A stretch of DNA of 64,000 bases from a bacterium (lineage in GTDB: Bacteria > SAR324 > NAC60-12), in assembly GCA_965233585.1 (NCBI GenBank), contig CBDDTI010000746.1, positions 736,001-800,000 of the forward strand. The letters are read 5' to 3'. Of the stretch, positions 2,297 to 23,608 are shown one piece after another. The position numbers were made by a program, and so were the translations under genes. The stretch's first letter is position 1, and each line of letters opens with the position of its first letter. Below the pieces are notes generated by a model that ran no database searches, was not told the DNA's origin, and saw only the letters and a program-made list of their open reading frames with translations.

Positions 2297-2410
2297 ACGT
2301 CGCTCATCTTTTTCTATAAAAAGACGATTGGATTTTCTGGTTAAACTTTTTGTTTTTTCGGGAAGTCAGTTTGGGTCAAAGTGTTCTATTGACTAAAAGT
2401 TTTTTTGAAA

Positions 2411-3349
2411 ATGCCACAAATTCTTGTTTCTGGAGAAGCATTGATTGATTTGACCGCTTCTTCTCATCAAAACAATGCTTATGTTCCTGTTCCTGGAGGG
2501 TCTCCCTTCAATGTGGCAACGGGGCTAGGCAATCTCAATATTCCAGTTCATTTTTTGGGGTCAATTTCAAATGATTTTCATGGTCAGTTGCAAAGGCAAT
2601 GTTTGGAACAAGCAAAGGTATCCCTTCGTTTTGTGCAAGATTGCAACCGACCTTCTGCCCTAGCTTTTGCAATCATGCCTCTTGATGGAAGTCAAGAAGT
2701 AGATTACCAGTTTTATTTAGAAGGGACTTCAGAAAGTCTTTTGGACAGCCAAGCGATTCCCAAAAAATTTCCTGAATCTATTCAAATTTTACATTTTGGT
2801 TCGTTCTCTGCCTATCGTGAACCTCAAAGTCTCATTTTTGAGCAAATTCGTCTTCAACATGCTGAACGCTTGATTTCCTTTGACCCTAATATCAGATCTG
2901 CCATGCTTCCCAATCATTTACAAACGGTTGAGCAAACTGAAAAAATTCTGAGGCAAAGTGATCTTGTCAAAGTCAGTCTTTCTGATTTGGAGTGGCTTTA
3001 TCCAAAGTCTGATGCTGGTCAAATTGCTCGTTTGTGGCAGGAGAGTTTTGGGGTTCAATTACTGGTTATCACAAAAGGAGAGCAAGGAGCTTGTGCCTTT
3101 TACAAGAATCAAGTCATTCATGTCCCAGCAGAACCTTTGCAAAATGTGGTGGACACGATTGGTGCAGGAGACAGCTTTATGTCAGCATTTTTGGCGTCTT
3201 TGGTTCGTCATCAAATCACTGACAAAAATGTGCTAAAGCAGTTAAATTTGGAACAAATCCAAAAGATGTTGGAATATGCTCAAAAGGCGGCTCGTTGGAC
3301 TTGTCAACAGCAAGGGGCATTGATGCCCTCTGCTTTTCACTTGCTTTAA
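2411..3349 (+). CDS. PfkB-family carbohydrate kinase (fructokinase-like)
   Basis: GEALID, PGGSPFNVA, SFDPNIR and DTIGAGDSF signatures. Confidence 0.92.
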   Translation: MPQILVSGEALIDLTASSHQNNAYVPVPGGSPFNVATGLGNLNIPVHFLGSISNDFHGQLQRQCLEQAKVSLRFVQDCNRPSALAFAIMPLDGSQEVDYQFYLEGTSESLLDSQAIPKKFPESIQILHFGSFSAYREPQSLIFEQIRLQHAERLISFDPNIRSAMLPNHLQTVEQTEKILRQSDLVKVSLSDLEWLYPKSDAGQIARLWQESFGVQLLVITKGEQGACAFYKNQVIHVPAEPLQNVVDTIGAGDSFMSAFLASLVRHQITDKNVLKQLNLEQIQKMLEYAQKAARWTCQQQGALMPSAFHLL

Positions 3350-3381
3350 CCAGCTTTCCAAACTTGTTTATCAAAAAACAC

Positions 3382-3410
3382 TTGACAAAAAATCTTGAGT
3401 CCTTTAACTT
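3382..3410 (+). promoter_or_regulatory. Candidate sigma70 promoter
   Basis: TTGACA (3382-3387), 17-nt spacer, TAACTT (3405-3410), overlapped by a TTGACAA/TTGTCAA inverted repeat. Confidence 0.4.
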
Positions 3411-3441
3411 GTCAAAGTTTATCATTTTGTCATTTAAAAAA

Positions 3442-3624
3442 ATGATTAGTCATGTGATGAAGTATCGGCAGCTACACGGGAATTTAAGCCTACAAGAATT
3501 TTTGACAGCTTTTGATAGAGTGGTCAAAAGAGAACACTCAAAACCTTATTATAGGAATTGGATGACTGATGGCAGGATTTGTAATACAAGCCGCAAGAAT
3601 AGAAAATCAAAAAATCAAAAATAA
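3442..3624 (+). CDS. Small hypothetical ORF or gene fragment at the edge of the AT-rich insert
   Basis: ATG at 3442 downstream of the candidate promoter; no recognised family. Confidence 0.25.
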   Translation: MISHVMKYRQLHGNLSLQEFLTAFDRVVKREHSKPYYRNWMTDGRICNTSRKNRKSKNQK

Positions 3625-3706
3625 TTCAAAAAATCCCTAATAAAGTAACCCCCAATAAGTAATAAAAACTAAACATTTAAAAAATATAAAAAAAATATAA
3701 CAAACT

Positions 3707-3714
3707 TTTATAAA
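3707..3714 (+). promoter_or_regulatory. Archaeal-type TATA box candidate (TTTATAAA)
   Basis: Ends 26 nt before the ATG at 3740; no Shine-Dalgarno sequence. Confidence 0.5.
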
Positions 3715-3739
3715 ACTCTAAACTAATAACTAAAATACT

Positions 3740-4252
3740 ATGAACTTACAAAAAAAAATATTAGAAATGACAACAGCAGGAGTAATAGGTTTAAGCAGTA
3801 TTACAGGTTGTGGAAGTGGAGATTCAAGTTCTCCTGGAAGTAATAAAAATGATGAAAAAGTAGAAGAAAGTACTAAAAATGAACAGGAAAAGTATGGAAA
3901 AGTAGATACTTGGGCAGAAAAAGCTTATGAAAATAATAGAAAAAATGGATCTGTAGGTTATCTTTCACAGAATCTTCAAGGAAAATGGTGTGATGACTCT
4001 GAGTTTGAAGGAGTAAAGATTCCTAACACTCATCATCTTTATTCTTCTTCAAGTTTTAAACTTGAAGAGACTAGAAATCTAAAACTTTTTATTGAAATGG
4101 AAAATATTCTTGATGGAAATCCCATGTATTCTAAGTTTAAAGTAGCAAAAGCAAATACTCTTACGGATGAAAAAGGAGATTATTATTATAAAATTCCAGA
4201 AAGTAAGAAAGAAGAAGATGTAATCTACAAAGTTACTATTAAAGATTGTTAG
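3740..4252 (+). CDS. Hypothetical lipoprotein-like protein, foreign and AT-rich
   Basis: Signal-like N-terminus ending ITGC followed by a Ser/Gly linker; ATA/TTA/AGA/GTA-rich codons unlike neighbouring genes. Confidence 0.7.
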   Translation: MNLQKKILEMTTAGVIGLSSITGCGSGDSSSPGSNKNDEKVEESTKNEQEKYGKVDTWAEKAYENNRKNGSVGYLSQNLQGKWCDDSEFEGVKIPNTHHLYSSSSFKLEETRNLKLFIEMENILDGNPMYSKFKVAKANTLTDEKGDYYYKIPESKKEEDVIYKVTIKDC

Positions 4253-4290
4253 GTTAATTATTATAATAACAAATTCCCAAAATAATTAAA

Positions 4291-4298
4291 TTTATAAA
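4291..4298 (+). promoter_or_regulatory. Archaeal-type TATA box candidate (TTTATAAA)
   Basis: Ends 25 nt before the ATG at 4323; no Shine-Dalgarno sequence. Confidence 0.5.
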
Positions 4299-4322
4299 AG
4301 TAATTTTTCTATAATTAATTAT

Positions 4323-4976
4323 ATGAAAAAATTACTAATACTAATTCTAGTATTCAATTTCTTTTTAAGCACTTCTTATTCATATTGTTTATTTAAAAAA
4401 TATGGGCCATCTTGTCCCAGTGGTTCCCCAGATTCAGCTCAAACAATATATTCGTCTCCATACAGACATTTAGGATTTATTCAAGGAACTTATACAGATT
4501 TATTAGTAGGATTTAATAAATATGATAGAATCTCAACTTGTACTCCGGGGGGGGAAGTAAAACCAGAAGGATTATATATTTGTAAAAATAATATAGCAGG
4601 TGGAGAAGAACATGACCAAGTATTTGAAATTTTTTTTGTTAAAAGCACAGGAAAAAAAGATCAAAAAGATGCTAAATTATACAATAATGAATTCTCACAT
4701 AAAATAGATATAAACTTACAGCACTTAGAAGAAAACAAAGGATTTTTAGAAGAAATAGAAGAAAAGGCAGAATTAAGAAGTAGAAATTTTAATAAAGATG
4801 AACATAGTTATCGAAAGGGTGGAGGAATAAGAAAGAATAAATATCGGGGTAATAATTTTTATAGGGTTTCTTATTATGAACTAAATATAAATTCAAATTT
4901 TATTATAGATAAACAATATATAACGAATCTTAAAATTAATCCTATTCCTTACAAAATAAAAAGCCCATATAGTTAA
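4323..4976 (+). CDS. Hypothetical secreted protein, foreign and AT-rich
   Basis: MKKLLILILVFNFFLSTSYS signal peptide; AT-rich codon usage; its TAA overlaps the ATG of the next gene. Confidence 0.7.
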   Translation: MKKLLILILVFNFFLSTSYSYCLFKKYGPSCPSGSPDSAQTIYSSPYRHLGFIQGTYTDLLVGFNKYDRISTCTPGGEVKPEGLYICKNNIAGGEEHDQVFEIFFVKSTGKKDQKDAKLYNNEFSHKIDINLQHLEENKGFLEEIEEKAELRSRNFNKDEHSYRKGGGIRKNKYRGNNFYRVSYYELNINSNFIIDKQYITNLKINPIPYKIKSPYS

Positions 4977-5752
4977 TGTATTGGAATAAACTGAAATTAG
5001 ATGGACAGCTTGCTGTGATTACAGGGGGTGGTCAAGGCATTGGTTATGCTTGTTCTCATGCTTTAGGCGAGGCAGGTGCAAAAGTGGTGATTGCAGAAAT
5101 CAATCAAGAAGGGTTGGCACAAGGAGTTGCCTCTTTAAAGAAATTGGGTCTTGAAGCCGATGGTGTTTTGCTGGACGTTGGTCAATCTGAACAAGTGGAC
5201 GAAGTGGCAGATGTGATTGCAAAGAGGCATGGCATTCCTACGATTCTAGTGAACAATGCAGGAGTTGTCTCAAGCGACATTCCTGCAGAAGAAACGACTG
5301 ACGAACATTGGCGTTTTCACATGCAAGTCAATCTTGATGGTTTGTTTTGGTGCTGCCGTGCTTTTGGTAGGTTGATGTTGAAGAATCAACAAGGTTCTAT
5401 CATCAATATCGGTTCCATGTCTGGTTTGATTGTCAACAAACCGCAGCCGCAAAGTTTCTATAATGCCTCCAAAGCTGGTGTGCATCAGCTGACAAAGTCA
5501 TTAGCAGCAGAATGGACGCCACGCGGGATTAGAGTCAATGCTGTTGCCCCAACCTATATTGATACCCCCCTACTTAAATTTGCAAAAGAAGACAATCCTG
5601 AAATGTACCAAAAATGGATGGAGATGACCCCTCTCGGACGTGCGGGAAAGCCTGAAGAAGTGGCGTCTGTGGTGCATTTTTTGGCAAGTGAAGCATCCAG
5701 TTTAATCACGGGAAGCATCATTAACGTTGATGGAGGCTACACGTGCTGGTAG
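4976..5752 (+). CDS. SDR polyol dehydrogenase (galactitol/threitol dehydrogenase GolD/DthD-like)
   Basis: TGGGQGIG, NNAG, YNASK, and the SMSGLIVNKPQPQSFY segment typical of GolD-like SDRs. Confidence 0.88.
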   Translation: MYWNKLKLDGQLAVITGGGQGIGYACSHALGEAGAKVVIAEINQEGLAQGVASLKKLGLEADGVLLDVGQSEQVDEVADVIAKRHGIPTILVNNAGVVSSDIPAEETTDEHWRFHMQVNLDGLFWCCRAFGRLMLKNQQGSIINIGSMSGLIVNKPQPQSFYNASKAGVHQLTKSLAAEWTPRGIRVNAVAPTYIDTPLLKFAKEDNPEMYQKWMEMTPLGRAGKPEEVASVVHFLASEASSLITGSIINVDGGYTCW

Positions 5753-6098
5753 AGTCTCTTGCTAAAACTGCCTAACAAGTTTGGGTGTTTTAGATTTCAA
5801 ATTCCCCCCCAAATATTCTCCAACCACATCGTTATCAAAAACGTTATAAATGACTCTGAGATGTTCAGGTTTAAAATCACTGCTAAGAAAGTTTTTGCCA
5901 GTTCCTTGTTGTTTATAAGATTTCCAGTTTTGAAAAAAATATCTTGACTTGAAATAAATTAAGGGTAACATGTATTTCGTTGGTTTTGTAGTTGGTCATG
6001 GATTCTGAACAATTCGGTTCATGGGTTGTTCGGGGTGTCCTTTTGTTTTTTAACCTCTTTTGTGAGTTGCCTATGAAGTGTTTTTAAAACTGAATTTG

Positions 6099-6136
6099 TT
6101 GACACAATCCTTATTAGTTAAATTGGAACTAATAAG
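6099..6136 (+). promoter_or_regulatory. Candidate -35 element plus operator-like palindrome upstream of the binding-protein gene
   Basis: TTGACA at 6099-6104; perfect 10-bp inverted repeat CTTATTAGTT-N7-AACTAATAAG at 6110-6136. Confidence 0.4.
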
Positions 6137-6169
6137 ATTTTTTAAAATTTATTAAATCAAAAATTGAAT

Positions 6170-7663
6170 ATGAAGAATCAATTAAAAAAAGAACATTTAG
6201 CAAGTTTGACTGATAAGTATGTCAAACGTCAAATTGGTCGGAGAGAGTTTTTGCGGGGTTCTGCAAAGCTGGGTTTGGGTGTTGCCGCTGTCAGTATGGT
6301 GAGACCTTTTGGGATACTTTCTGATGCGTACGCAGATGGTCATCAATTCAAACCTGATTCTGATGTGCTTTCGTGGGTGAAAGATGTCTCAAAGCCATTT
6401 CGTGGCAAGACAATTAAATTGGCAACAGAAGCGACCCCTCCTTCTATTGCCATCAATTCTCACCTGAAGAAACATTTTGAAAAGGCATCGGGGATTCGTG
6501 TGGAAATTGAGGTCTTGCCTTTGGAACAAGTGCTACAAAAAATGACCCTAGACATTGCCTCTCAACTTGGAACGTATGACCTGTATTACATTGACCAAAG
6601 TTGGGCGGCTTCTGTGAGTGAAGATGTCTTTGACCCACGTGAACATGCTGAAGACAAGCCCAGTTTGTCTATGCCTAACTATAACATTGATGACTTCCTG
6701 CCTGCTTTGGTTGATGGGATTGCCAAGTACAAAGACCGTTGGGTGGGTGTGCCGTATGACATTCCTATTTTCATCATGCAGTATCGCAAAGATATTTATG
6801 ACAAGATGGGATTTTCTGCACCTGAAACATTAGAAGAGTACTATGCTCAAGCTCTTGCCATTACTAATGAGTATGGTCCAAAACTCTATGGCGCCACAGG
6901 TCAAATGAAGTCTGGGCATTATAGTTTGGAATGTGATTGGACAGCATGGCTTTGGGGACATGGAGGGTCTATTTTTGACCGTAACGGACGTTTTTCAGGG
7001 AATGATGAAGAAGGTGTCGCCGCAATGGAATACTGGTCAAGGCTTTGGAAAACCATGCCTCCGGGTGTCACAGGCTGGACGTGGGACGGACAAGGGCAAT
7101 CCGTAGCTCAAGGAGTTGCTGCCAGTATGATGAGTTGGGGTGAGTTTTTCCCTGTGTTTGATGACCCTAAATCAAGCAAGGTTTCAGGAAAAATGGCAGC
7201 AGCACGTTGTCCTAGACCCAAAAAAGCCCTGCGGACTGTGAGGCAAACAGGTTATGGCGAAATTCCAGGAGTTGGACATCAAGGAGGCTCGTCTTTGGCA
7301 GTTTCTAAAAACTCTAAAAATCCTGATGCCGCATGGGTGTTCATGCAATGGGCAACTTGTCAAGACACTCAAGAGCTGATTACAGTACTTGGTGGTGGAA
7401 CAGGACCAACACGACACTCTGTCTATGATGCCCCACGTGTCAAAGCCAATCGCCGTGTTGGTGCAGGGACAACGCGACACTTAGACGTGGTGCGGGAAAC
7501 CATTGCTAAAGACATGGGGTCAGAACCTGATTTGCCAGAATGGGCAGAGCTTTCTAATGACACAATTCCTGTGCGTTTAGGAAAATACTTTGCTGGCGAT
7601 TATAGCTCGTCCAAAGAAGCCATGAACGATATTGCTCAAGCTGTGGATAAAATCGTAGGCTAG
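6170..7663 (+). CDS. Sugar ABC transporter substrate-binding protein with Tat signal
   Basis: GRREFLRG twin-arginine motif; SBP_bac_1-like features (YRKDIY, GGSSLAVSKNSKNPDAAWVFMQW). Confidence 0.9.
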   Translation: MKNQLKKEHLASLTDKYVKRQIGRREFLRGSAKLGLGVAAVSMVRPFGILSDAYADGHQFKPDSDVLSWVKDVSKPFRGKTIKLATEATPPSIAINSHLKKHFEKASGIRVEIEVLPLEQVLQKMTLDIASQLGTYDLYYIDQSWAASVSEDVFDPREHAEDKPSLSMPNYNIDDFLPALVDGIAKYKDRWVGVPYDIPIFIMQYRKDIYDKMGFSAPETLEEYYAQALAITNEYGPKLYGATGQMKSGHYSLECDWTAWLWGHGGSIFDRNGRFSGNDEEGVAAMEYWSRLWKTMPPGVTGWTWDGQGQSVAQGVAASMMSWGEFFPVFDDPKSSKVSGKMAAARCPRPKKALRTVRQTGYGEIPGVGHQGGSSLAVSKNSKNPDAAWVFMQWATCQDTQELITVLGGGTGPTRHSVYDAPRVKANRRVGAGTTRHLDVVRETIAKDMGSEPDLPEWAELSNDTIPVRLGKYFAGDYSSSKEAMNDIAQAVDKIVG

Positions 7664-7676
7664 ACGTTTCTCAATT

Positions 7677-7715
7677 TTTGCAGGGAAGCAACTTTTGTTT
7701 TTGTTTCTCTGCAAA
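7677..7715 (+). terminator. Stem-loop after the binding-protein gene (terminator or mRNA stabiliser)
   Basis: TTTGCAGGGAAGCAA...TTGTTTCTCTGCAAA imperfect inverted repeat with G-U pairs. Confidence 0.55.
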
Positions 7716-7748
7716 TCAAGACACTCACAATGAAAAAGTTTTGAATTT

Positions 7749-10079
7749 ATGCTAAACGAGAGAAAAACAGAGCAAATTGTCCGAACACATTTTGAGCAAT
7801 ACCTAGAAATTTTAGAAATAGAAGAACAGCAATCAGATGATAAAAAAATTGATAAATTACTGAAATCCGCTTCAAAGCAAGGATTAGGAAAAGGCTATCC
7901 TGACTTTATTATTAGCTATCCAAATCAATCTGATTTTTTGATTGTCATTGAATGTAAGGCTGACTTGAACAAACATGAAAGCGAAAGCCATCTTCAATAT
8001 GCAGATTATGCGGTTGATGGAGTTTTACTTTATGCCTCTTATCTTTCAAAAGAATTTGATGTTTTAGCGATTGCTGTGAGTGGAGAAAGTCAAGAGACGT
8101 TAAAAGTTTCACATTTCTTACATCTGAAAACAGAAAAGGATGCTACCAATATCTTTGGAGAACAGCTTTTAACTGCAAATGACTATTTGAACGGGTACCT
8201 CAAAAGTCCAGAAAAATTTAGACAAGATTATGATGCACTTTTAGAATTTGCCAAAGAACTGAACATAAAACTCCATACCTATAAAATTAGAGAGAGTGAT
8301 AGAGCATTGTTGATTAGTGCCATTTTAATTGCCTTAGAAAGTGATGCTTTTAAAAAATCATATGCTTCACATTCTACGCCATCAAGTTTAGCTAGTATTT
8401 TGCTTGAAACTGTACTGCATGAATTGGCAGAAGCAGGAATGGATCATAAAAACTTGGAAAATTTGAAAATTCAATTCGGCTTTATTAAAACAGACACTTC
8501 TCTTTCCAAAGAAAGAAAAATATTAAAAGAATTAATTGATGAGATAGATCAAAACATCAATCAGTTCATTAAGACTCATGAATATTTTGATGTACTAGGA
8601 CAGCTGTACATAGAGTTTTTGCAATATGCTAATAGTGATAAAGGGCTAGGAATCGTTTTAACTCCTCCACATATCACAGAATTATTTGCAGATTTAGCCC
8701 AAGTCAACAAAAATTCCATAGTCTATGATAATTGCACGGGAACGGGGGGATTTTTAATATCAGCAATGAAAAAAATGATATTAGATGCGAAAGGTGATGA
8801 GGCAAAAATAAAACAAATCAAATCAAAACAATTATTAGGAACAGAATATCAAGCTCACATCTTTGCTTTGTCAGTTTCCAATATGTACATTCATCAAGAT
8901 GGGAAAACAAATATCACTAATGGAAGTTGTTTTGAAGCAGAAACAATAGATCATGCTAAAAAACAACAACCTACGATTGGTTTCTTAAACCCCCCTTACA
9001 AAGCAGATAAAAAAGCAGATGTTGATGAGTTAAACTTTATTTTCAATAACTTAGAATGTTTATGTGAAGGAGGAACTTGTATAGCTATTGTTCCTATGCA
9101 ATGTGCTTTAGCTCAAAAAGGAAAAATCTTTGAATTGAAAAAGAAACTTTTAGAGCAACATACTTTAGAAGCTGTGTTGTCTATGCCTGATGAATTATTT
9201 TTTAATTCAAAAGTCAATGTGGTTTCTTGCATCATGATTTTTACAGCACACAAGCCACATTCTCAACATAAAAAAACTTACTTTGGCTATTACAAAAATG
9301 ATGGTTTTGTCAAAAGAAAAACCAAAGGAAGAATTGACGTACTAGGAAACTGGCAAAGCATTCAAAAAAAATGGGTCAAGCACTTCATAAATCGTGAAAC
9401 AGAGGAAGGTTTGAGTGTCAATCAAATAGTTTCTAATCAAGACGAATGGTGTGCCGAAGCGTACATGCAAACTGATTATTCTCATTTAAATCCCCAAAAC
9501 TTTGAAGATACTATTTTAAAATACGTCACTTTTTTATTGGGGAATAGACTACTAGGTCAAGTGCATAAAAAACCACTCTTAGAAAACAAGATGCTATTAA
9601 ATCCAGAGGAATGGTTAATGTTTAAACTTGATACTCTTTTTGAAACAAAAGGAAGTCAAACTACATCGCTATTAGAACTAGAAGAATATGGAAAAGGAAA
9701 ATATCCTTACGTCACAACACAAGCCACTGATAATGGAACAGCAGGATTTTATGATTTTTTTTCAGAAGATGGAAATGTTTTAACAGTAGATAGCGCAGTT
9801 TTAGGATATTGTGCTTATCAAAAATTTGCATTTTCTGCAAGTGATCATGTGGAAAAACTCATACCCAAATTTGAGATGAATGAATATACTGCTATGTTTT
9901 TAGTCACTATTTTGAATTTGGAACAATATCGTTACAATTACGGCAGAAAATGCAGTCAAGCTAGAATGAAGAAGATGAGTATCAAGTTACCCGCAAAGGA
10001 CGGGAAAGCTGATTTTAGTTTTATGGAATCTTATGTCAAAACACTTCCATTTTCTTCATCTGTTCTCATAACAAACTGA
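7749..10079 (+). CDS. Fused restriction-modification enzyme (BcgI alpha-like nuclease plus N6-adenine MTase, with C-terminal TRD; Type IIG/IIB-like)
   Basis: N-terminal GYPDF...IECK PD-(D/E)XK motif, motif I DNCTGTGGFL, motif IV NPPY, HsdS-like C-terminus (YPYVT...NGTAGF). Confidence 0.85.
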   Translation: MLNERKTEQIVRTHFEQYLEILEIEEQQSDDKKIDKLLKSASKQGLGKGYPDFIISYPNQSDFLIVIECKADLNKHESESHLQYADYAVDGVLLYASYLSKEFDVLAIAVSGESQETLKVSHFLHLKTEKDATNIFGEQLLTANDYLNGYLKSPEKFRQDYDALLEFAKELNIKLHTYKIRESDRALLISAILIALESDAFKKSYASHSTPSSLASILLETVLHELAEAGMDHKNLENLKIQFGFIKTDTSLSKERKILKELIDEIDQNINQFIKTHEYFDVLGQLYIEFLQYANSDKGLGIVLTPPHITELFADLAQVNKNSIVYDNCTGTGGFLISAMKKMILDAKGDEAKIKQIKSKQLLGTEYQAHIFALSVSNMYIHQDGKTNITNGSCFEAETIDHAKKQQPTIGFLNPPYKADKKADVDELNFIFNNLECLCEGGTCIAIVPMQCALAQKGKIFELKKKLLEQHTLEAVLSMPDELFFNSKVNVVSCIMIFTAHKPHSQHKKTYFGYYKNDGFVKRKTKGRIDVLGNWQSIQKKWVKHFINRETEEGLSVNQIVSNQDEWCAEAYMQTDYSHLNPQNFEDTILKYVTFLLGNRLLGQVHKKPLLENKMLLNPEEWLMFKLDTLFETKGSQTTSLLELEEYGKGKYPYVTTQATDNGTAGFYDFFSEDGNVLTVDSAVLGYCAYQKFAFSASDHVEKLIPKFEMNEYTAMFLVTILNLEQYRYNYGRKCSQARMKKMSIKLPAKDGKADFSFMESYVKTLPFSSSVLITN

Positions 10080-10128
10080 ATCAATTCATTTTATTAAAGG
10101 CTCAATTTTAAATTATTTGTAGGAAAAA

Positions 10129-11208
10129 ATGACGACTCAAAAACTATTTGTTTTAATCATTTTGACATTGACTTCCTTGTCTTCATGGGTCAATGCAGAG
10201 GGATGGGAAAATCCTGCTGAAAAATATATAAATGCCTACAAAAAATATCTCAATGCAACTTGTCCAATTCCCAAAAATGACATCAAGCATTTTGTTTATT
10301 TTGCAAGGGATAGGGAATTGATAAAAAATCACCTTTTGCTTTCTCATTCAAGATTTAAAGGAGCGCAAATTATGTATCCTTGGAAGCATTTAGAACCCAA
10401 AAAAGATGAATACGATTTTTCAACTATAAAAGAAGATTTAGAATATCTGAAAAAGTACAATAAAAAACTTTTTGTCGTGCTACAAGATGCTACATTCAGT
10501 CCAAAATGGAACGTCACTCCTCATTATTTAAGAACAGAGGAATATGATGGAGGTGCGATTTTACAACGTGAGGACAACGGCAGAGCTTTTGGTTGGGTGG
10601 CTAAACGATGGAACAAAAAAGTACAAGACAGATTTGCCTTGCTTCTCATCAATTTAGGAAAAGAATTTGACGGAAAAATAGAAGGAATCAATCTTCAAGA
10701 AACAGCCATTGGAGTCAACCAAAAAAGAGACCCTACCTTTACCGAATTGGGTTATATTCAAGGGTTAAAAAACAACATGTTAGCACTTAGAAAAGCATTT
10801 CCAACATCAACCACAATGATTTATGCTAACTTTACCCCCGGTGAATGGCTTCCATGGGAAGACAAAGGGTATCTTAAAGGAATTTATCAATACGGACAAG
10901 AAATTGGAGTCGGGCTTGGTGGACCAGATTTGATGGTGACTAGAAAAGGACAGCTCAATCATACACTGGCACAAATGCACGAGGGACAATTTACAGTCCC
11001 TCTTGGAATCGCGGTTCAAGATGGGAACTATGTTGGTAAAACAGGGGCAGATGCAGATTATAGTAAAAGTCACAAGAAAGGAGCGATTCAAAGAAACAAT
11101 ATTGTTCCGATGTTGCATGCTTTCGCAAAAGATTTTTTAAAAGTGAACTATATGTTCTGGGTGGATCAAAAACCATACTTTGAAAAAGACGTTGTCCCTT
11201 GTTTTTAA
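10129..11208 (+). CDS. Secreted hypothetical protein with GH-A clan (GH42/GH5)-like N-terminal pattern
   Basis: Signal peptide; YPWKHLEPKKDEYDFS resembles the W-x-x-LEP-x-x-G-x-YDF motif; candidate acid/base in LQETA. Confidence 0.55.
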   Translation: MTTQKLFVLIILTLTSLSSWVNAEGWENPAEKYINAYKKYLNATCPIPKNDIKHFVYFARDRELIKNHLLLSHSRFKGAQIMYPWKHLEPKKDEYDFSTIKEDLEYLKKYNKKLFVVLQDATFSPKWNVTPHYLRTEEYDGGAILQREDNGRAFGWVAKRWNKKVQDRFALLLINLGKEFDGKIEGINLQETAIGVNQKRDPTFTELGYIQGLKNNMLALRKAFPTSTTMIYANFTPGEWLPWEDKGYLKGIYQYGQEIGVGLGGPDLMVTRKGQLNHTLAQMHEGQFTVPLGIAVQDGNYVGKTGADADYSKSHKKGAIQRNNIVPMLHAFAKDFLKVNYMFWVDQKPYFEKDVVPCF

Positions 11209-11287
11209 GATGAATCATTGGGGCATCAAATGACCCCCTTTCACTTATTCCAAATTTTATTTTCAATTCTTTTAATTTAGAGGAAAA

Positions 11288-12016
11288 ATGACTACTCAAA
11301 AACCTTTAATTGCCATCACAGGTGCAAGTTCTGGGATTGGAGAAGCCACTGCCAAAGCCTTTTCAAAAGCAGGGCATCCTGTCTTACTCATGGCGAGACG
11401 TTTGGAACGTTTGCAAGCATTCAATTTGCCTCATGCTGTGTGCCATCAAGTAGATGTCAGAGACAGGCAAGCGATTCAAGAGGCAGTCCAAGATGCTGAA
11501 AATCAATATGGACCAGTGGACATGATGTTTGCAAATGCGGGCATTGCAAGGCTTGCAGACATTGGCAGGCAACCACCTGAGGAATGGGACGAGATGATTG
11601 ACATCAACACAAAAGGTGTTATGAATACTGTCCATGCCGTGCTGAATGGAATGATGCAACGCAAGTGTGGAACATTAGTGATGATGAGTTCCATTGCAGG
11701 ACGTAAAGTTTACCCCGAACATACCGTTTACTGCGGCACAAAGTTTTTTGTCCATGCTGTCTCTGAATCATTGAGAGAATACCTTTCTGATTACAATGTG
11801 AGAGTCTTAGTTATTTCACCCGGTGTCATTGAAACAGAAATTCTATCTGGCGTCAAAGACGAACAAACTCTAGCCAATTACAAAGCCAATAAAGTGAAAA
11901 TGGGAGGAGGCATTGAGTCTGGCATCGTTGCAGACTTAATTCTTAATGCCTATCAACTGCCCCAAAAAGCACTTGTTCAAGAAATTTGCATGACTCCAAC
12001 TTCTCAAAAATTTTAA
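11288..12016 (+). CDS. SDR oxidoreductase (NADP-dependent, YdfG-like)
   Basis: TGASSGIG, ARR, NAG and YCGTK motifs. Confidence 0.9.
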   Translation: MTTQKPLIAITGASSGIGEATAKAFSKAGHPVLLMARRLERLQAFNLPHAVCHQVDVRDRQAIQEAVQDAENQYGPVDMMFANAGIARLADIGRQPPEEWDEMIDINTKGVMNTVHAVLNGMMQRKCGTLVMMSSIAGRKVYPEHTVYCGTKFFVHAVSESLREYLSDYNVRVLVISPGVIETEILSGVKDEQTLANYKANKVKMGGGIESGIVADLILNAYQLPQKALVQEICMTPTSQKF

Positions 12017-12025
12017 AATCAAACT

Positions 12026-13093
12026 ATGGCAACAGTTACTCTGAAGAAAGTCAAGAAAAACTATGGTCACGTTGAGGTCATGGACAACATCAATTTGTCT
12101 ATTGAAGACCAAGAATTTGTCGTGTTGTTGGGGTCATCAGGCTGTGGCAAGACCACGTTGCTTCGTATGATTGCAGGTTTGGAAACGATTACAGGGGGTG
12201 AGATTTTTATTGATGACCTGTGTATCAATCAAATCCACCCACGCGACAGAGATATTGCTATGGTCTTTCAAAACTACGCCTTGTATCCCACCATGAAGGT
12301 TTTTGACAACATCGGATTTAGTTTACAAGTTGCCAAACTCCCCAAGCAGGAAATTGAGGCAAAAGTCAAGGAAGTTGCTGAAATCTTACACATCTCAGAC
12401 TATTTAGAACGTTATCCCAAAGAACTTTCTGGTGGTCAAAGACAACGTGTTGCGATGGGACGTGCGATGGTTCGTGATGCAAAAGTATTTTTATTTGACG
12501 AACCCCTTTCTAACTTAGATGCCAAATTGCGTATGCGTATGCGTGTTGAGATTCGGCAACTCCATGAACGCCTGAAAGCAACGACCATTTACGTGACACA
12601 TGATCAAGTAGAAGCGATGACGATGGCAGATAAAATTGTGTTGATGCGTGGGGGTGAAATCATTCAAATTGGAACCCCTGATGACTTTTATGATAGCCCT
12701 AATTGTGTGTATGTAGCTGATTTTATTGGCACACCTCCTATGAATTTTGTGGAAGGAGTGATACAAAAATCCAATGAAAATTATATTTTTGCAGCCAAAG
12801 GAGTCAATATTCCTTTAGGAGTGGAAGTCCATGAAGATTTAACAAACCGACCTTTGATCTGTGGCATTCGTCCTTCTGACCTTAAAATCAGCGAACAAGG
12901 CAATATTCGTGGACAAGTGAAGTTGAAAGAAATGACAGGTTCAGAGATTCAAATTTATTTTGACATTGAGGGGCAAGACTTGATCGCCACTGCACCAAGA
13001 AAAACAGAACTCAACCAACAAGCAATCCATTTTGAAGTAGATCCCAAAAAATTACACTTTTTTGATAAACAAACAGAACAACGATTAAATTGA
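12026..13093 (+). CDS. Sugar ABC transporter ATP-binding protein (MalK/UgpC family)
   Basis: Walker A GSSGCGKT, VFQNYALYP, LSGGQRQRVA, DEPLSNLD, YVTHDQ. Confidence 0.95.
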   Translation: MATVTLKKVKKNYGHVEVMDNINLSIEDQEFVVLLGSSGCGKTTLLRMIAGLETITGGEIFIDDLCINQIHPRDRDIAMVFQNYALYPTMKVFDNIGFSLQVAKLPKQEIEAKVKEVAEILHISDYLERYPKELSGGQRQRVAMGRAMVRDAKVFLFDEPLSNLDAKLRMRMRVEIRQLHERLKATTIYVTHDQVEAMTMADKIVLMRGGEIIQIGTPDDFYDSPNCVYVADFIGTPPMNFVEGVIQKSNENYIFAAKGVNIPLGVEVHEDLTNRPLICGIRPSDLKISEQGNIRGQVKLKEMTGSEIQIYFDIEGQDLIATAPRKTELNQQAIHFEVDPKKLHFFDKQTEQRLN

Positions 13094-13148
13094 ACTGAAC
13101 TGAATCGTTCAGTTTTTGACAAAAATCAAACTTTGTCTTAAAACATCT

Positions 13149-13244
13149 ATGACATTAGCAGAATTTGAGAAGGCATTTTTAGAGTTGAAAAATAAGGGAT
13201 TTGTTCAAGCTAAAAAAAATCAATTTTTCTACAAAAGAATGTAA
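13149..13244 (+). pseudogene. Possible N-terminal relic of an MvaI/BcnI-family restriction endonuclease
   Basis: Translates to MTLAEFEKAFLELKNKGFVQAKK then degenerates; resembles the family's N-terminal helix (recognised from memory, not searched). Confidence 0.35.
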
Positions 13245-13313
13245 AATTTATCTTTAAAAGTATATTTTTTAGGTCAAATCACACTCTTGACGATTCATTT
13301 AATAAAACAAGCT

Positions 13314-14636
13314 ATGACAACAAAAAACTGGACAGAATTGATTGACGACATTTATCAAGGCAAGTGGGTCAATCCTGTGACCCAAGAAGTCGCCCCACCT
13401 GCACCTTATGAGAAAATTGTGATTGAAGAAAGCCTTGCAGGTTTAGAGTTACAACTGGTTGCAGACTTAGGATTGCATGCTCCCTACTTGATTGTTGCAG
13501 ATTCACAAACGTGGCAGGCTATGGGGAAACGTCTCAGTGACGCACTCAAACAAGCAGGAGATGTGGAACATTTAATTTTAGAAAAACCTCATGCAGACTT
13601 AGCAACGGTGGAAAAACTCCGTCCATCATTCAAAAAATTTGCATCAATTATCGCAGTGGGTTCTGGAACAATCAATGACTTGTGCAAGCATGCAAGCATG
13701 CTCAATCAGCAGAGTTATTGTGTTTTTGCAACTGCTGGGTCTATGAACGGTTACACTTCAACAACAGCTTCCATGACCCTAGATTCAGGACTCAAGGTGT
13801 CTTTGCCCTCTCATGCTCCTTTGGGGTTTTTCGTGGATTTATCCGTCAGTGCCAATGCTCCAAGTTTTTTGTCAGCCGCCGGTTTTGGAGACTGCCTTTG
13901 TCGTTCTGTGGCTCAGGTAGATTGGTGGATGTCGCATCGCTTGCTTGATACAACCTATTACGAAGAACCTTTTTTGATGCAAATTGATGATGAAAAAATT
14001 CTGAATGCAAAAGCAAAATTGTTGCCCAACAATGACGTGGAAGCTGTCGCTTATCTGTACAGAGTTCTCACTTTATGCGGACTTGGTGTTTCTCTCACAG
14101 GCACTTCTCATCATGGCTCTATGGGAGAACATCAAATTTCTCATTACATTGATTGCTTTGCAAAAGACAAGCACCCGGGTTCTTTGCATGGACAACAAGT
14201 AGGAGTTGCCAGCTTGACGATGGCACGCATTCAACAACATTTCTTATCCAGTGAAAAACCTCCTGTTGTGAAGCCAACAAAGCTCAACTTTGATGACATG
14301 GCAAAAAGAATGGGCAATGACATTGCAAAACAATGCTATGCAGAATATCAGAAAAAAGCACTTGATGAGCAAAAGGCAGATGCTCTGAACAAGAAAATGC
14401 AAGACATTTGGAAGGATTTGCGTAAGGAATGCTTGGAGTTTTCTATCCCCATTGAAGAGATGGAGGATTTACTCCGTTCTACAAAAGGTCCTACCACAGC
14501 AAAAGAATTAAAATTGGACATTGATTTTTACCGTGAGGCAGTTCGTCATGCACACGAGATGAGGAACCGTTTTTCTTTTGCAGACCTTGCTTGTGACGCT
14601 GGGTTGCTTGACGACTTTGCCTCTGCTGAATCATAA
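13314..14636 (+). CDS. sn-glycerol-1-phosphate dehydrogenase family (AraM/EgsA-like) metal-dependent dehydrogenase
   Basis: AVGSGTINDLCK, TAGSMNGYTS, AGFGD, GEHQISH and HGQQVG motifs. Confidence 0.85.
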   Translation: MTTKNWTELIDDIYQGKWVNPVTQEVAPPAPYEKIVIEESLAGLELQLVADLGLHAPYLIVADSQTWQAMGKRLSDALKQAGDVEHLILEKPHADLATVEKLRPSFKKFASIIAVGSGTINDLCKHASMLNQQSYCVFATAGSMNGYTSTTASMTLDSGLKVSLPSHAPLGFFVDLSVSANAPSFLSAAGFGDCLCRSVAQVDWWMSHRLLDTTYYEEPFLMQIDDEKILNAKAKLLPNNDVEAVAYLYRVLTLCGLGVSLTGTSHHGSMGEHQISHYIDCFAKDKHPGSLHGQQVGVASLTMARIQQHFLSSEKPPVVKPTKLNFDDMAKRMGNDIAKQCYAEYQKKALDEQKADALNKKMQDIWKDLRKECLEFSIPIEEMEDLLRSTKGPTTAKELKLDIDFYREAVRHAHEMRNRFSFADLACDAGLLDDFASAES

Positions 14637-14648
14637 AGTTTGAGAAAT

Positions 14649-15443
14649 ATGCAATCTATTCAGAACATGCCAAATTCTGTTGTCAAAAACATTTGTTGTG
14701 TGATGACAGACATTGATGACACTTTAACAACTGATGGTCTTTTGCCAGCAGAAGCCTATCAAGGACTAGAAGATTTGCATCAAGCTGGTTTTTGGGTTGT
14801 CCCCATCACAGGACGCCCTGCGGGGTGGTGCGATATGGTTGCCAGATTCTGGCCCGTGTGTGGTGTTGTTGGTGAAAACGGGGCATTTTATTTTGCATAC
14901 GACCACCATCAACGCAAAATGCTCAGACGTTATCATCATTCTGACAAAGAAAGACAAGCCAACGCTCAAAAATTAAAAGAGATTGAAAACCAAATTTTAG
15001 CACAAGTCAAGGGTTGTGCGGTTTCTGCTGACCAAGCCTATCGTGAGTCAGATTTAGCGATTGATTTTTGCGAAGATGTTCCCCCGCTTAATAAACAAGA
15101 TGTACAAAGAATTAAACAGATTTTTGAAGAAAATGGAGCAGTTGCTAAGGTTTCATCAATCCACGTCAACGGCTGGTTTGGAGATTATGACAAGCTAACT
15201 ATGAGCCATCAATTCGCTAAGGAACGTCTGAATCTGGACTTGCATCAATTTAAAGAAAAAATTGTATTTTGCGGAGATAGTCCAAATGATGCACCCATGT
15301 TTGAATTTTTTCCAAATTCTTGTGGAGTTGCCAATGTGCTGGATTTTCAAGACCAAATTCAAACTATGCCAACTTGGGTCACGAAGCAAAAGGGAGGACA
15401 AGGATTTTTTGAGATGACACGGGTTCTCATTGGCAGAAAATAA
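14649..15443 (+). CDS. HAD-IIB family hydrolase (sugar-phosphate phosphatase-like)
   Basis: DIDDT motif I, ITGR, GDSPND motif IV. Confidence 0.88.
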   Translation: MQSIQNMPNSVVKNICCVMTDIDDTLTTDGLLPAEAYQGLEDLHQAGFWVVPITGRPAGWCDMVARFWPVCGVVGENGAFYFAYDHHQRKMLRRYHHSDKERQANAQKLKEIENQILAQVKGCAVSADQAYRESDLAIDFCEDVPPLNKQDVQRIKQIFEENGAVAKVSSIHVNGWFGDYDKLTMSHQFAKERLNLDLHQFKEKIVFCGDSPNDAPMFEFFPNSCGVANVLDFQDQIQTMPTWVTKQKGGQGFFEMTRVLIGRK

Positions 15444-15555
15444 TGTCTTGAGTCAGTCATCATCTTGAGCAAATAGTCATTCAAAGAACGAACGACGTAG
15501 AAAGCTCAATAAATTATGTGATGATGATTGATTTGTTTAATGATTTACTGAATCA

Positions 15556-15741
15556 ATGGAAATCTTGAATATTGCAAATATAAGTGAAATACCTATTGAA
15601 TGGAACAAAGAAAAAAATGAGATATTAAAGAAAAAAAGAGGTATAACTTTTGAAAAAATTAAAAGAATTATTAAAAATAAAGAATATATTGCTATTGTTA
15701 ATAATGAAAGATATAAAAATCAAAACAATTTATGCAAGTAG
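15556..15741 (+). pseudogene. Truncated BrnT-like toxin
   Basis: IEWNKEKNEILKKKRGITFE is the BrnT N-terminal signature; the ORF stops at 61 aa without the C-terminal half; AT-rich. Confidence 0.6.
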
Positions 15742-15778
15742 GAAATTAAATAAAATTTATAACTTAAAATAGGTCATT

Positions 15779-16096
15779 ATGAGTATAGAACAACATGAAA
15801 AATATTTGAGGGGTGAAATTGATGAATACCCGTATATTGATGAGGAAGAAAGAGAATTGATTGAGGGTATTGAAAATGATATTGAAAATGGAAACTATAC
15901 CATTATGCCTAAAGAAGAAATGGAATTACTTATGGATAAAGTAAGAAAAGGTATATTAGAAGAAGAAAGGCAATATAAGATGAAAGTCAAGGATTTTGAG
16001 GTTTTAAAAGAAGATTTAGAACACAAGGGAGCAAATGAAGAGGTTATAAAGGCTTTGGAAGATTTTATGAGTGATAAAATGGTAGTAAATGCTTAA
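15779..16096 (+). CDS. Probable antitoxin-like protein (partner of BrnT-like toxin), AT-rich
   Basis: Acidic DEEERELIEGIEN segment; lies directly downstream of the BrnT-like fragment. Confidence 0.45.
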   Translation: MSIEQHEKYLRGEIDEYPYIDEEERELIEGIENDIENGNYTIMPKEEMELLMDKVRKGILEEERQYKMKVKDFEVLKEDLEHKGANEEVIKALEDFMSDKMVVNA

Positions 16097-16225
16097 ATAC
16101 AACAAGCCAAGCAAATCCAAATAAAAAACGTGCTTTCAAAATTAGGCTATGCACCAGCAAGAGAAAGGGGAAGCATGCTTTTTTAGTTTTCATTGTTCCA
16201 TGATGAAAAAACGCCATCGTTTAAA
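16097..16225 (+). pseudogene. Relic of a CHC2 zinc-finger/DNA primase N-terminus (conjugative-element type)
   Basis: Frame reads IQQAKQIQIKNVLSKLGYAPARERGSMLF*FSLFHDEKTPSFK; DEKTPSF is the CHC2 primase motif; in-frame TAG at 16184-16186. Confidence 0.6.
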
Positions 16226-16259
16226 CAAAATACAGAGATAAACCACTTAAAGAAAAGTT

Positions 16260-18314
16260 ATGAAAAATAATTGGAATGCTGAAGAAGCAAAAGAATACAT
16301 CAAAAAGTATGAACAACAGGGTTGCAACACAGACCTTGCCATCAGAGTTTATACTTCAAGACTTTTGGGAAGAGAACACAAGATGATTTTGCATGGAGGA
16401 GGCAACACCTCCGTTAAGACCAATGTTAAAGACATTCTAGGTCGTGATGTGAAAGTGCTGTGTGTCAAAGGAAGTGGTTGGGACATGGGTGTCATTGAAC
16501 CCGAAGGACTGCCTGCCGTCAGGTTAGAGCCTCTTTTGGAATTTCGTGTGCTAGACGCACTTTCTGATGAGGACATGGTGAATTGTCTCCGCACTAACTT
16601 AATGAATAGTGCCTCTCCTAATCCTTCAGTTGAGACTCTACTCCATGCCTTCCTTCCCCACAAATTTATTGACCACACCCATTCATCAGCAATCAATAGC
16701 ATCAGCAACATGCCCAATTATGTTGAGGTTTGCCAAGAAATCTATGGTCAAGACATGGGAACTGTGGACTATATCATGCCGGGTTTTGCCCTTGCCAAGT
16801 CTGCAATGAATGCTTTTGAGTCAAGCCCTCACGTCAAAGGGTTGTTGCTTCAGAATCATGGCATTTTTACTTTTGCTGAAGATGGAAAAGAAGCCTATGA
16901 TTTGATGATAGAATACGTAAGTCGTGCAGAAGAGTTTTTGCAGAAAAATCGTCGGTCTGTGGTCTTTGAACAAAGGGCAATTCCTCAAGAGTTAGCTGAT
17001 GTTGCAGAAGTCGCTCCTGTCATTCGTGGGGCATTGGCTCAAAGTTTAGGTGAGGGCAGTTTTCAAAAATGGATTCTACACTTTAGAACCAATGAAACGA
17101 TTTTGCATTTTGTGAATGGCGAGGACGTCAAAGACTACGCAAGACGTGGACCTGCCACCCCAGAACAAGTCATTCGGATTAAGCCAAAGCCACTCATTGC
17201 ACCCGTTCCCCAAAAAAATCAACTCCAAGCCTTTGAAACAGAACTCAGGCAAGAAGTCGCAAGTTTCATTCAAGATTACCAAGACTATTTTCACAAACAC
17301 AATGCAAGATTTGATGGAATCAAAAAAATCTTAGACACCGCCCCGCGTGTGATTTTAGTGCCAGGAATGGGACTATTTGGAGTTGGAGAAACAGCTAAAG
17401 ATGCAAGGATTTCAGCAGACATGATAGAAAGTTTAATTGAGTCTATCACCGATGCAGAAGCTATTGGAGAATTTAGAGCGTTGTCAGAAGCAGACTTGTT
17501 TGACATGGAATACTGGTCGCTTGAACAGGCAAAACTTCACAAAAAAGCAGAAAAAGCATTGTCAAGACAGATTGTTGCCATCACAGGCGGTGCGGGAGTT
17601 TTGGGTCTGGCGATTGGTCAAGAATATGCCAAACATGGTGCAGAAGTTGCCTTGTTAGATGTCAGTGAATCTTCTCTAAGCAAAGCTCTTGAAAAGCTCC
17701 CTAGTGCCAGAAAATTCGTGTGCGATGTGACAAATCCTCAAAGCGTGAAAGACACCATGAATGAGGTGGTTTGCGAATTTGGAGGATTGGATATTTTGGT
17801 CTCTAACGCAGGTTCTGCATGGACGGGTTCTATTGCAGAAGTCAGCGAATCCGTTTTGAAAGAGAGTTTTGAGCTGAATTTTTTTGGACATCAAAGAGCC
17901 TCGCAAGCCGCTGTTGCCATTTTCAAGAAACAAAAAACGGGAGGACTCCTTTCATACAATATCTCTAAACAAGCAATCAATCCGGGTCAAGATTTTGGTC
18001 CTTACGGTCTGGCTAAAGCCTCTTTGATGTTTTTGATGAGACAATACGCCTTAGAATGCGCTGCTGATGGCATCAGAGCCAATGGAGTCAATCCAGACCG
18101 CATTCGGAGTGGTCTTTTGACTGATGCCATGATTCAAGAAAGAGCCAAAGCCAGACAAATGACAGAACAAGATTACATGAAAGGCAATCTTTTAAAGCTG
18201 GAAGTGCTAGCCAAACATGTTGCCAAAGCATTTGTGGATCATGCCTTAGCCCCAAGAACTACGGCTGACATTACGACTGTTGACGGTGGTAACATTGTGG
18301 CAACCTTGCGTTGA
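16260..18314 (+). CDS. Bifunctional class II aldolase/short-chain dehydrogenase (RhaD-like fusion)
   Basis: HGGGNTSVK, KGSGWD, PSVETLLH, DHTH, NHG; C-terminal SDR with TGGAG and YGLAK. Confidence 0.92.
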   Translation: MKNNWNAEEAKEYIKKYEQQGCNTDLAIRVYTSRLLGREHKMILHGGGNTSVKTNVKDILGRDVKVLCVKGSGWDMGVIEPEGLPAVRLEPLLEFRVLDALSDEDMVNCLRTNLMNSASPNPSVETLLHAFLPHKFIDHTHSSAINSISNMPNYVEVCQEIYGQDMGTVDYIMPGFALAKSAMNAFESSPHVKGLLLQNHGIFTFAEDGKEAYDLMIEYVSRAEEFLQKNRRSVVFEQRAIPQELADVAEVAPVIRGALAQSLGEGSFQKWILHFRTNETILHFVNGEDVKDYARRGPATPEQVIRIKPKPLIAPVPQKNQLQAFETELRQEVASFIQDYQDYFHKHNARFDGIKKILDTAPRVILVPGMGLFGVGETAKDARISADMIESLIESITDAEAIGEFRALSEADLFDMEYWSLEQAKLHKKAEKALSRQIVAITGGAGVLGLAIGQEYAKHGAEVALLDVSESSLSKALEKLPSARKFVCDVTNPQSVKDTMNEVVCEFGGLDILVSNAGSAWTGSIAEVSESVLKESFELNFFGHQRASQAAVAIFKKQKTGGLLSYNISKQAINPGQDFGPYGLAKASLMFLMRQYALECAADGIRANGVNPDRIRSGLLTDAMIQERAKARQMTEQDYMKGNLLKLEVLAKHVAKAFVDHALAPRTTADITTVDGGNIVATLR

Positions 18315-20780: not shown

Positions 20781-21034
20781 CGTAGGAACAAACACTTGGG
20801 TTTGTGCTGTTTCTGAAAGAACGAGATTGCGGGTCAAGCCCGCAATGACCAAAGGCAAGCATGGATTCCTGCCTTCGCAGGAATGACCAAAGACACGTCT
20901 ACAAAATTCCTCTGTCATTCCGCACTTGATGCGGAATCTATCACCAAACTAAGCATGGGTTCCTGCTTTCTCAGGAATGAACAAACCCAGCATGGACTCC
21001 TAAACTTGACTGGATTCCTACCCCTGTTTTCACA
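20781..21034. repeat. Cluster of REP-like palindromes (GTC-tagged and GTAG-tagged)
   Basis: CGTAGGAACAAAC..GTTTGT (20781); GAGATTGCGGGTCAAGCCCGCAATGAC (20823-20849); GGATTCCTGCCTTCGCAGGAATGAC (20863-20887); GTCATTCCGCACTTGATGCGGAATCT (20914-20939); further degenerate copies. Confidence 0.85.
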
Positions 21035-21042
21035 GGCAGTGT

Positions 21043-21752: not shown

Positions 21753-21808
21753 AATTCATTCCTTAAATTCACTCCCACATGCAATGACAATACCAAGTAA
21801 ACACTGCC

Positions 21809-21940: not shown

Positions 21941-22150
21941 GTTGCACAAAAGAGGTCAGCGTCATGTTGTCTCATTTCGTTTCATTATAGCTTAAATGAC
22001 CTGTAATAAAAACAACTAAGACCTTTGTAAAAGGTTCTTGTGGAGAAAGCCTGCAATAACAAAAGATAACAAAAAGATGACAAAATAACTCTCTTCGTTT
22101 CACTAGCAACAACGAAGGGACTAAATAAAGAATGGGAGAAAGGTCAAATC

Positions 22151-23603: not shown

Positions 23604-23608
23604 AGTAT

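Follow-up and report, generated by a model that had tools for sequence, protein, structure and literature searches.

The DNA considered here is a 64,000-nucleotide stretch (the window) of genome G000, a SAR324 bacterium of the lineage NAC60-12 (assembly GCA_965233585.1; contig CBDDTI010000746.1, C746 for short, positions 736001-800000 of the forward strand). A sugar catabolic cluster in this window holds foreign or added DNA at four junctions between host genes: after a PfkB kinase gene (junction 1), between the genes for a sugar-binding protein (SBP) and a short-chain dehydrogenase (SDR) (junction 2), between ABC ATPase and G1PDH genes (junction 3) and ahead of an aldolase/SDR fusion gene (junction 4; Table 1). 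The open reading frames (ORFs) of the inserts lie, on the plus strand, where an earlier reading of the bare letters (the original prediction) had put them: 3740-4252, 4323-4976, 7749-10079, 10129-11208, 13149-13244, 15556, 15779-16096 and 16097-16249. The GC content of the first three is 0.29, 0.27 and 0.33, respectively. Its further description of the inserts, as pieces placed at gene boundaries that leave the host ORFs intact and lack a transposase or integrase, was also borne out: scans of the window proteins against Pfam, NCBIfam and PADLOC and an attC motif scan detected no integrase, transposase or attC core pair in them.

Table 1 Features of the sugar cluster and of related loci elsewhere in the genome (C745 and C747 are other contigs of the same genome; G001 and G054 are relatives; aa, amino acids)
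Feature	Position	Strand	Evidence or remark
PfkB carbohydrate kinase of the host, flanking junction 1 on the left	2411..3349	+	Pfam PfkB, E 5e-42; GC 0.41
Relic, 3' end of small membrane-protein gene	3548..3621	+	66/75 identical (88%) to C747:646514-646588
Orphan AT-rich lipoprotein-like ORF, 170 aa	3740..4252	+	Representative search
Orphan AT-rich ORF, 217 aa, predicted secreted	4323..4976	+	Sequence
Host sugar-binding protein (SBP)	6170..7663	+	Pfam SBP_bac_1; 72% to G001
Type IIG/IIB-like restriction-methylase with a single specificity domain fused on in frame	7749..10079	+	PADLOC REase_MTase_IIG, E 1.6e-173
Left copy of duplicated target: SDR ribosome-binding site and first six codons	10115..10144	+	26/30 to 11275-11303
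Foreign secreted protein, 359 aa	10129..11208	+	Weak GH42 likeness, Pfam E 8e-4, below cut-off
Right copy of duplicated target, working start of native SDR	11275..11303	+	26/30 to 10115-10144
Native SDR of the SBP-SDR-ABC block	11288..12016	+	GC 0.43; 76% identical in G001, G054
31-codon AT-rich ORF	13149..13244	+	In a 220-bp gap
Leader of this genome's toxin-antitoxin modules	15511..15555	+	Six best matches among 2503 pre-start regions
BrnT-like toxin gene, internal ~77-bp deletion at about 15725	15556..15772	+	Pfam BrnT E 2.5e-4, below cut-off
Full-length antitoxin-like gene	15779..16096	+	52-53% to C747:169875-170207 and C745:12520-12786
Decayed 5' end of CHC2-zinc-finger/toprim primase of Bacteroidota mobile elements	16097..16249	+	Codons 3 to ~51, one internal TAG
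Host aldolase/SDR fusion, right flank of junction 4	16260..18314	+	Pfam Aldolase_II plus adh_short
BsaWI-like restriction-modification pair	C747:351656-353646		Preceded by 40/42 copy of downstream ABC ATPase start
Orphan plus methylase unit	C747:918018-920045		88-bp copy (~77%, about 68/88) of downstream dihydrolipoamide dehydrogenase start
Orphan plus pentapeptide unit	C747:812638-813564		26-bp copy (MKTGF) of downstream O-methyltransferase start
Antitoxin-VapC pair	C746:535348-536087		Followed by 29/34 copy of sucA end

The junctions are backed by contigs from four sequencing runs. Runs X1 and X2 each yielded a single 15,222-bp contig that spans window positions 2000-16078 with zero differences, run X3 spans 8474-16078, and run X4, from a second sample, spans 7739-15346 in two contigs, X3 and X4 thereby covering junctions 2 and 3. 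The short-read contigs break only at a ~30-bp repeat (16051-16078) common to other antitoxin copies. These runs stem from one study and are possibly the source data; a binning chimera is excluded by them, but they do not count as biologically independent. Some 9 Mb of the assembly, which totals 12 Mb, consists of ~740 small contigs, has a low ORF cover and is probably eukaryotic, leaving ~2.9 Mb for the bacterium; 35 other contigs sampled from it had an ORF cover of 0.0-0.78. Foreign sequence of this kind in the file might raise the suspicion that the patchwork itself is an assembly chimera, which is hardly conceivable given the unchanged X1 and X2 contigs, those of X3 and X4, and the window's place on an 831-kb contig with an ORF cover of 0.86. 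All genome-wide counts below refer to five contigs (2.92 Mb, ORF cover 0.83-0.86) and 2,636 genes from our own gene caller. For comparison we used 88 genomes of the phylum, G000 included, which is the sole member of its genus.

At junction 2, the gene for a secreted protein of 359 aa lies between two copies of the start of the downstream SDR gene. Both copies encode MTTQK; the right one starts the SDR and the left one now starts the foreign gene. Beyond the core of 26 matches in 30, the repeat aligns at 27/35 without gaps, with a weaker likeness of 54/80 when extended, and with a score of 42 the pair was the best of 2,174 ATG starts, the other 2,173 of which reached at most 32. Thus, the view that the cluster shows no target duplication was wrong for this junction. 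SDR homologues start with MTQKP, MTSQKP or VTTKP and homologues of the 359-aa protein have unrelated N termini, which suggests that the motif is the SDR's own and would have been copied from the host to the newcomer. The 359-aa protein has 1,604 homologues, up to 73% identical, the named top matches being from Bacteroidota, and it occurs in one of the 87 other phylum genomes.

The SDR had itself been counted among the foreign genes, but it is native. In G001 and G054 an SDR of 76% identity sits directly between the SBP and the ABC ATPase, and metagenome loci with a close SDR have an SBP no more than 200 bp upstream in 32 of 58 cases, a larger gap in none and no close SBP in the stretch in the other 26. 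Alignment to relatives, which the original prediction had envisaged, therefore recovered the empty SBP-SDR gene order at these loci; the repeat could not be aligned, as the relatives are too diverged. A hairpin read from the sequence (~7677-7715) follows the SBP gene, and hairpins follow it in the empty sites too. Between this hairpin and the left repeat copy lies the restriction-modification (R-M) fusion gene, for which no repeat of its own was found. The nearest R-M form that we found consists of two genes in genome G026 (an RM protein of 600 aa and an S protein of 326 aa, 64% and 54%); in the window the end of RM runs into the middle of S, and a deletion is the likely origin of the fusion. 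The closest homologue found comes from the same order as G000, at 71% DNA identity.

A scan of the genome for the same pattern, also proposed at the outset, turned up four more inserts with a copied host gene start or end (Table 1). The repeat spans the start at the window and at three of these loci, and the stop at one. At the dihydrolipoamide dehydrogenase locus the copied start is fused in frame to the orphan. The antitoxin-VapC pair sits after sucA, which in relatives lies 39-352 bp from sucB in 16 of 19 loci (the other three have no sucB in the stretch). As for further empty sites, no orthologue of the ABC ATPase case was found at E 1e-110 in 44 genomes, and the upstream neighbour in the O-methyltransferase case was not conserved in 13 loci. 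Elsewhere, a DUF547 gene (C747:929344-931800) has a signal peptide and upstream DNA that copy those of a downstream family-5 binding protein, possibly an in-frame capture of the signal peptide.

In a matched test, low-GC units carried a repeat without paralogy in 6 of 103 cases, native units in 1 of 306 (p 0.0013). With a probable paralogue array removed the counts were 5/102 and 1/306 (p 0.004), and with the window case also dropped 4/101 (p 0.015). Start copies upstream numbered 21, compared with 5-12 in five control directions (score 34). Similar stubs could remain where a host gene, or just its start, was duplicated in tandem and most of the upstream copy was then deleted or replaced by unrelated DNA. 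Paralogue arrays are indeed common in this genome, where most of 87 high-scoring neighbour pairs are paralogues and 56 relics have own-genome parents. A host 5' relic also lies 6 kb upstream of the window, at C746:730750-731189, where a duplicate of an FGGY 5' end (87%) is joined to a duplicate of an SBP promoter (75%) ahead of another SBP gene. Yet such a history requires two events per site, the stubs end 5-30 codons from the start or stop exactly at the edge of the insert, and they are ~15 times commoner in low-GC than in native units; we regard it as unlikely.

On balance, we favour the interpretation that the foreign pieces entered block by block through insertion with long target duplication, without a transposase, at the starts or ends of genes, and were then reworked by deletion and rearrangement. 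Incoming DNA would be used to repair a break or a strand invasion close to the boundary of a gene, leaving 25-90 bp of the target on both sides of the insert. The copied start or stop would keep the host gene whole and supply the newcomer with a promoter and ribosome-binding site, and we propose that only events with both properties persist. R-M and toxin-antitoxin (TA) cargo would be retained by addiction until the toxin decays, as may have happened to BrnT at junction 4. Repeat searches at junctions 1 and 4 and near the R-M gene gave only chance-level alignments; these inserts and that of junction 3 are likely older or were later trimmed, with erosion by deletion and rearrangement in a genome rich in the insertion sequence IS1. 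The scar matches a described type of event (PMC2853133). A need for the undescribed capture system that had been offered as one route was not supported, whereas the other proposed route, DNA uptake, is possible because the genes for ComEC and DprA are present and open.

Several observations weigh against this interpretation. Only one insert of the window has a detectable repeat, its 30-bp core borders the published 30-bp criterion, and the R-M fusion sits upstream of the left copy, outside the repeat pair. The collections searched contain no conspecific base-level empty site, the nearest relatives being other genera. About 95% of low-GC units have no repeat. The enrichment test was post hoc: it was designed after the window case and relies on a gene caller and GC thresholds of our own. 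A previous form of it, which took only the first gene per unit, gave 7/105 compared with 4/320, with false positives on both sides. The pfkB-SDR and HAD-aldolase adjacencies were seen neither at the 10 relatives' loci nor at 60 metagenome loci, and junctions 1 and 4 may therefore mark breakpoints of a rearrangement. Finally, a TA gene lay directly upstream of an intact primase at none of 80 loci, all of them picked by a Bacteroidales-biased query.

The presence of ComEC and DprA would equally suit homology-facilitated illegitimate recombination after natural transformation, anchored in the flanking host gene and involving no duplication step. Most inserts lack a repeat, deletion points here use short A-runs, and many hotspots of horizontal gene transfer without mobile elements are enriched in transformable species (PMC5635113). 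This route needs a homologous anchor (PMC3240628), and DNA from Bacteroidota would provide none for this SDR; by itself the route does not predict direct repeats of the target start. As a full account it is quite doubtful; within the interpretation favoured above, it may still be how the DNA was taken up.

At junction 4, the original prediction listed a truncated BrnT, an antitoxin-like gene and a primase fragment that abut one another. We found that BrnT, antitoxin and primase relic are one unit, a member of an intragenomic TA family, as its leader recurs at six and its tail at four other TA loci. The six best matches to the leader among 2,503 genes are all first genes of TA pairs. Likewise, the three best matches to the tail are all last genes of TA pairs, and a fifth tail is linked through those; shorter primase relics thus follow four other TA pairs, making five tails in all. 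TA families are expanded in the genome (7 PIN toxins, 4 BrnT-like toxins and 16 antitoxins in two mosaic groups), and one member of the leader-and-tail family sits inside the duplication at the sucA end. Compared with an intact paralogue (C747:170204-170506, 51%), the BrnT gene has lost its ~77 bp between short A-runs and keeps both gene ends; it is not a 5' relic, the 3' end being preserved in another frame. Its Pfam match is below cut-off, as it is for the intact paralogues too, and with the toxin gene internally deleted the pair is not a type II BrnT/BrnA system in the sense of an intact BrnT RNase plus antitoxin. The antitoxin gene matched no family in Pfam and other profile scans, and an antitoxin alignment used to look for a donor found nothing in contigs of genomes or metagenomes.

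The primase assignment stood up: from codon 3 on, the relic matches CHC2/toprim proteins of plasmids (20 records, the best at 51%, E 3e-7), and a profile built from intact primases alone ranks it first and the copy at C745:133112 third (a weak 11 bits). An intact primase of the relic's type was found neither in G000 nor in 87 other phylum genomes, and no donor of a TA-primase unit appeared in viral contigs (one 11-aa chance match), in a protein search or at 19 BrnT loci of relatives. Of the 88 phylum genomes, 24 have BrnT-type genes. Together with the order-level R-M homologue and the common origin of the junction 4 trio, this tells against a very different donor for each piece; that short foreign DNA was gained repeatedly is supported. 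At two loci, C295:100598-100700 and C745:12381-12786, an antitoxin 3' end with a promoter-like tail is duplicated, both times beside an IS1 copy and a lipoprotein-family gene.

The recurring primase relic invites the idea that the inserts are remnants of site-specific integrative elements which carried a copy of the target gene end (att) and lost nearly everything but addictive cargo, with TA leader and primase tail left over from one such family. Primases of this type are found on Bacteroidota mobilizable elements, the relic follows five TA pairs, and in the copy at C745:376349 the primase ATG overlaps the antitoxin stop. The repeats lie in five different target genes, the inserts of 0.9-2.1 kb keep both repeats and show no integrase remnant, none of the three tyrosine recombinase matches on the bacterial contigs is near a repeat-flanked site, and the missing intact primase also speaks against such an origin, which we think rather doubtful.

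It is thus probable that TA pair and stub were fused a single time and spread from there by copying, with exchange of toxins, instead of being taken up as three pieces. A bolder version would make the unit a non-autonomous TA cassette with a fixed frame (~45-bp leader, TA slot and primase-5' stub), whose toxin and antitoxin genes are exchanged through recombination. Host repair with long target duplication would place copies of it at further gene boundaries, the cassette having no recombinase of its own. We consider such a cassette unlikely. If it exists, any cargo could use insertion with long target duplication as a general route, including TA pairs that spread within a genome, and host starts and signal peptides could be captured in frame in this way.

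A dedicated, hitherto undescribed system that places co-oriented gene 5' ends between operon genes could draw on the same frame with a variable slot, given seven TA modules of three toxin families with a common leader and five modules with a common tail. The two signals from which it was originally suspected did not survive genome-wide counts. Low-GC islands (a set that includes a few low-GC native genes) with co-directional flanks follow those flanks in 74 of 82 cases, compared with 1,242 of 1,402 native genes (Fisher p 0.86), and co-orientation thus equals the background. Of the 56 relics with own-genome parents, 18 are 5' ends, 26 are 3' ends and 12 are internal (p 0.29), after masking of IS1 and removal of rows abutting flanking genes and of full-length matches; the unmasked count (109 3' and 50 5') is dominated by IS1 pieces. 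Within the window, too, relics are not confined to 5' ends, since that at 3548-3621 is a 3' end and BrnT keeps both. We found no common motif across the four junctions, no integron integrase (TIGR02249, best 51 bits against a cut-off of 265, which no control genome passed either), no RYYYAAC...GTTRRRY attC pair in seven spacer stretches and no Rfam match in window positions 1-22000, which makes such a system very unlikely. Promoter and terminator scans came out little above shuffled sequence (54 compared with 40.6 +/- 6.8, and 11 compared with 9.5).

Junction 1 holds, besides the relic, two orphans. The relic is frameshifted into a 55-aa ORF (3457-3624) and its parent family lies elsewhere in the genome, where small decayed ORFs for membrane proteins, their starts repeated, form an array (C747:645900-647300). 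The signal-peptide region of the first orphan is common to a second AT-rich lipoprotein-like orphan, C746:459939-460517, whose first 12 codons look host-like in composition, with no source found. A representative search with the first orphan returned itself, one 192-aa protein, presumably the paralogue judging by its length, and a 24% repeat match. The TAA of the second orphan overlaps the ATG of a host SDR at 4976; 109 candidates gave only the ORF itself, and the Atlas gave no match. Neither orphan had relatives outside this genome in the searches run. On the minus strand, a 69-aa low-GC ORF (5762-5971) that lies between that SDR and the promoter of the SBP gene has no family match; if real, it is an anti-oriented piece absent from the original prediction.

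At junction 3, the gap between the ABC ATPase and G1PDH genes measures 220 bp, compared with 12 bp in locus L148, so something was added. The 31-codon ORF in this gap had been called an endonuclease-like fragment, for which we detected no homologue: Pfam, NCBIfam, PADLOC, the PDB, plasmids, phages, the Atlas and its own genome gave no match, and comparison with three MvaI/BcnI N termini gave shuffle p values of 0.10, 0.91 and 0.23, although 31 aa afford little power. Its start resembles the downstream G1PDH start (15/17, p ~0.02; protein score 21), a weak hint that it may be a decayed copy of that start.

Signs of later erosion in the genome at large are 63 IS1-like loci of at least 600 bp and the 56 gene relics, in 2.9 Mb. 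The cluster has been reshuffled as well: permeases and a fuculose-aldolase-like gene that flank the block in G001 lie 15-20 kb upstream in G000, where they adjoin another R-M/TA island. At C746:721538-730004 we noted an R-M island resembling type III; it has two genes for methylases and three gene pairs of the TA or HEPN/nucleotidyltransferase kind, and a 62-75-bp repeat recurs at the ends of internal units. Repeats of 35 bp that are palindromic (20857 and 20951) directly follow the cluster, as do several pieces of IS1 (20857-24911). On another contig, a low-GC protein of 1,544 aa (C745:406982-411616) has a start that we take to resemble Cas12a, and two identical genes (C745:404997-405272 and 87246-87521) are presumably Cas2-like.

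Among known systems, integron cassette arrays also consist of co-oriented promoterless foreign ORFs, TA pairs included; unlike them, the cluster has no IntI and no attC core pairs, and its pieces lie scattered among genes of the host. Nobusato et al. 2000 (Gene 259:99) reportedly dealt with insertion with long target duplication. It is already known that foreign genes can lie between core genes in the absence of a transposase and that orphans insert in operons (PMC5635113, PMC1480536). Excerpts of the former (Oliveira et al. 2017) describe foreign genes, defence genes among them, between core genes without an integrase in transformable hosts; such a hotspot is defined over the pan-genome of a species, by an excess of transferred genes at one place between two core genes and by recombination in the flanks, whereas the genomes compared here number one per species and the cluster shows four small separate sites, with duplication at one. 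According to excerpts of the latter (Price et al. 2006), ORFans are inserted downstream of native genes and use native promoters, and operons are reshuffled by deletion and rearrangement; these passages give no junction mechanism and rate insertion inside operons, as seen here, rarer than at their ends. A young symbiont with a host-associated genome has many R-M genes and remnants at synteny breaks (PMC4760077; Zheng et al. 2016) and, in the text excerpted, no transposons, whereas G000 has its IS1-like loci and many intact TA pairs.

The closest counterpart is insertion with long target duplication as described by Furuta, Abe and Kobayashi 2010 (PMC2853133), with variable-length direct repeats across start or stop sites, operon-like insertion and gene fusion in mostly naturally competent hosts. 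In the part of that paper at hand, the mechanism is left unexplained, with double-strand breaks by R-M enzymes being proposed, and the criteria are R and M genes in the insert, a direct duplication of more than 30 bp, a length below 20 kb, no integrase, transposase or prophage genes and a single-copy empty site in a related genome; that the repeat crosses a start or stop is frequent but not required. The window shares the short insert without integrase or transposase, direct repeats across a start, an operon-like cluster, a gene fusion and competence genes. Its insert measures 1.1 kb and has no integrase, transposase or prophage genes, but the unit 10115-11303 holds only the 359-aa gene and no R and M genes. 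Against the required length, the window offers its 26/30 core and the other loci 40/42, 29/34, ~68/88 and 26 bp. The R-M pair at C747:351656-353646, which holds both R and M, is a textbook case. Compared with the published examples, the repeats here are older (75-95% alike), that of the window is ~30 bp long and a conspecific empty site is lacking. The window insert thus works like insertion with long target duplication and, lacking R and M genes, is a variant with other cargo. What differs from the known event is this non-R-M cargo (a secreted protein, a TA pair and orphans); the excerpts of PMC3874152 and PMC2654758 report no TA insertion with long target duplication. Five cases in one genome, three of them without a restriction enzyme, argue that the cargo need not supply the nuclease, and the fusions to copied host starts show a route by which foreign ORFs gain expression signals.

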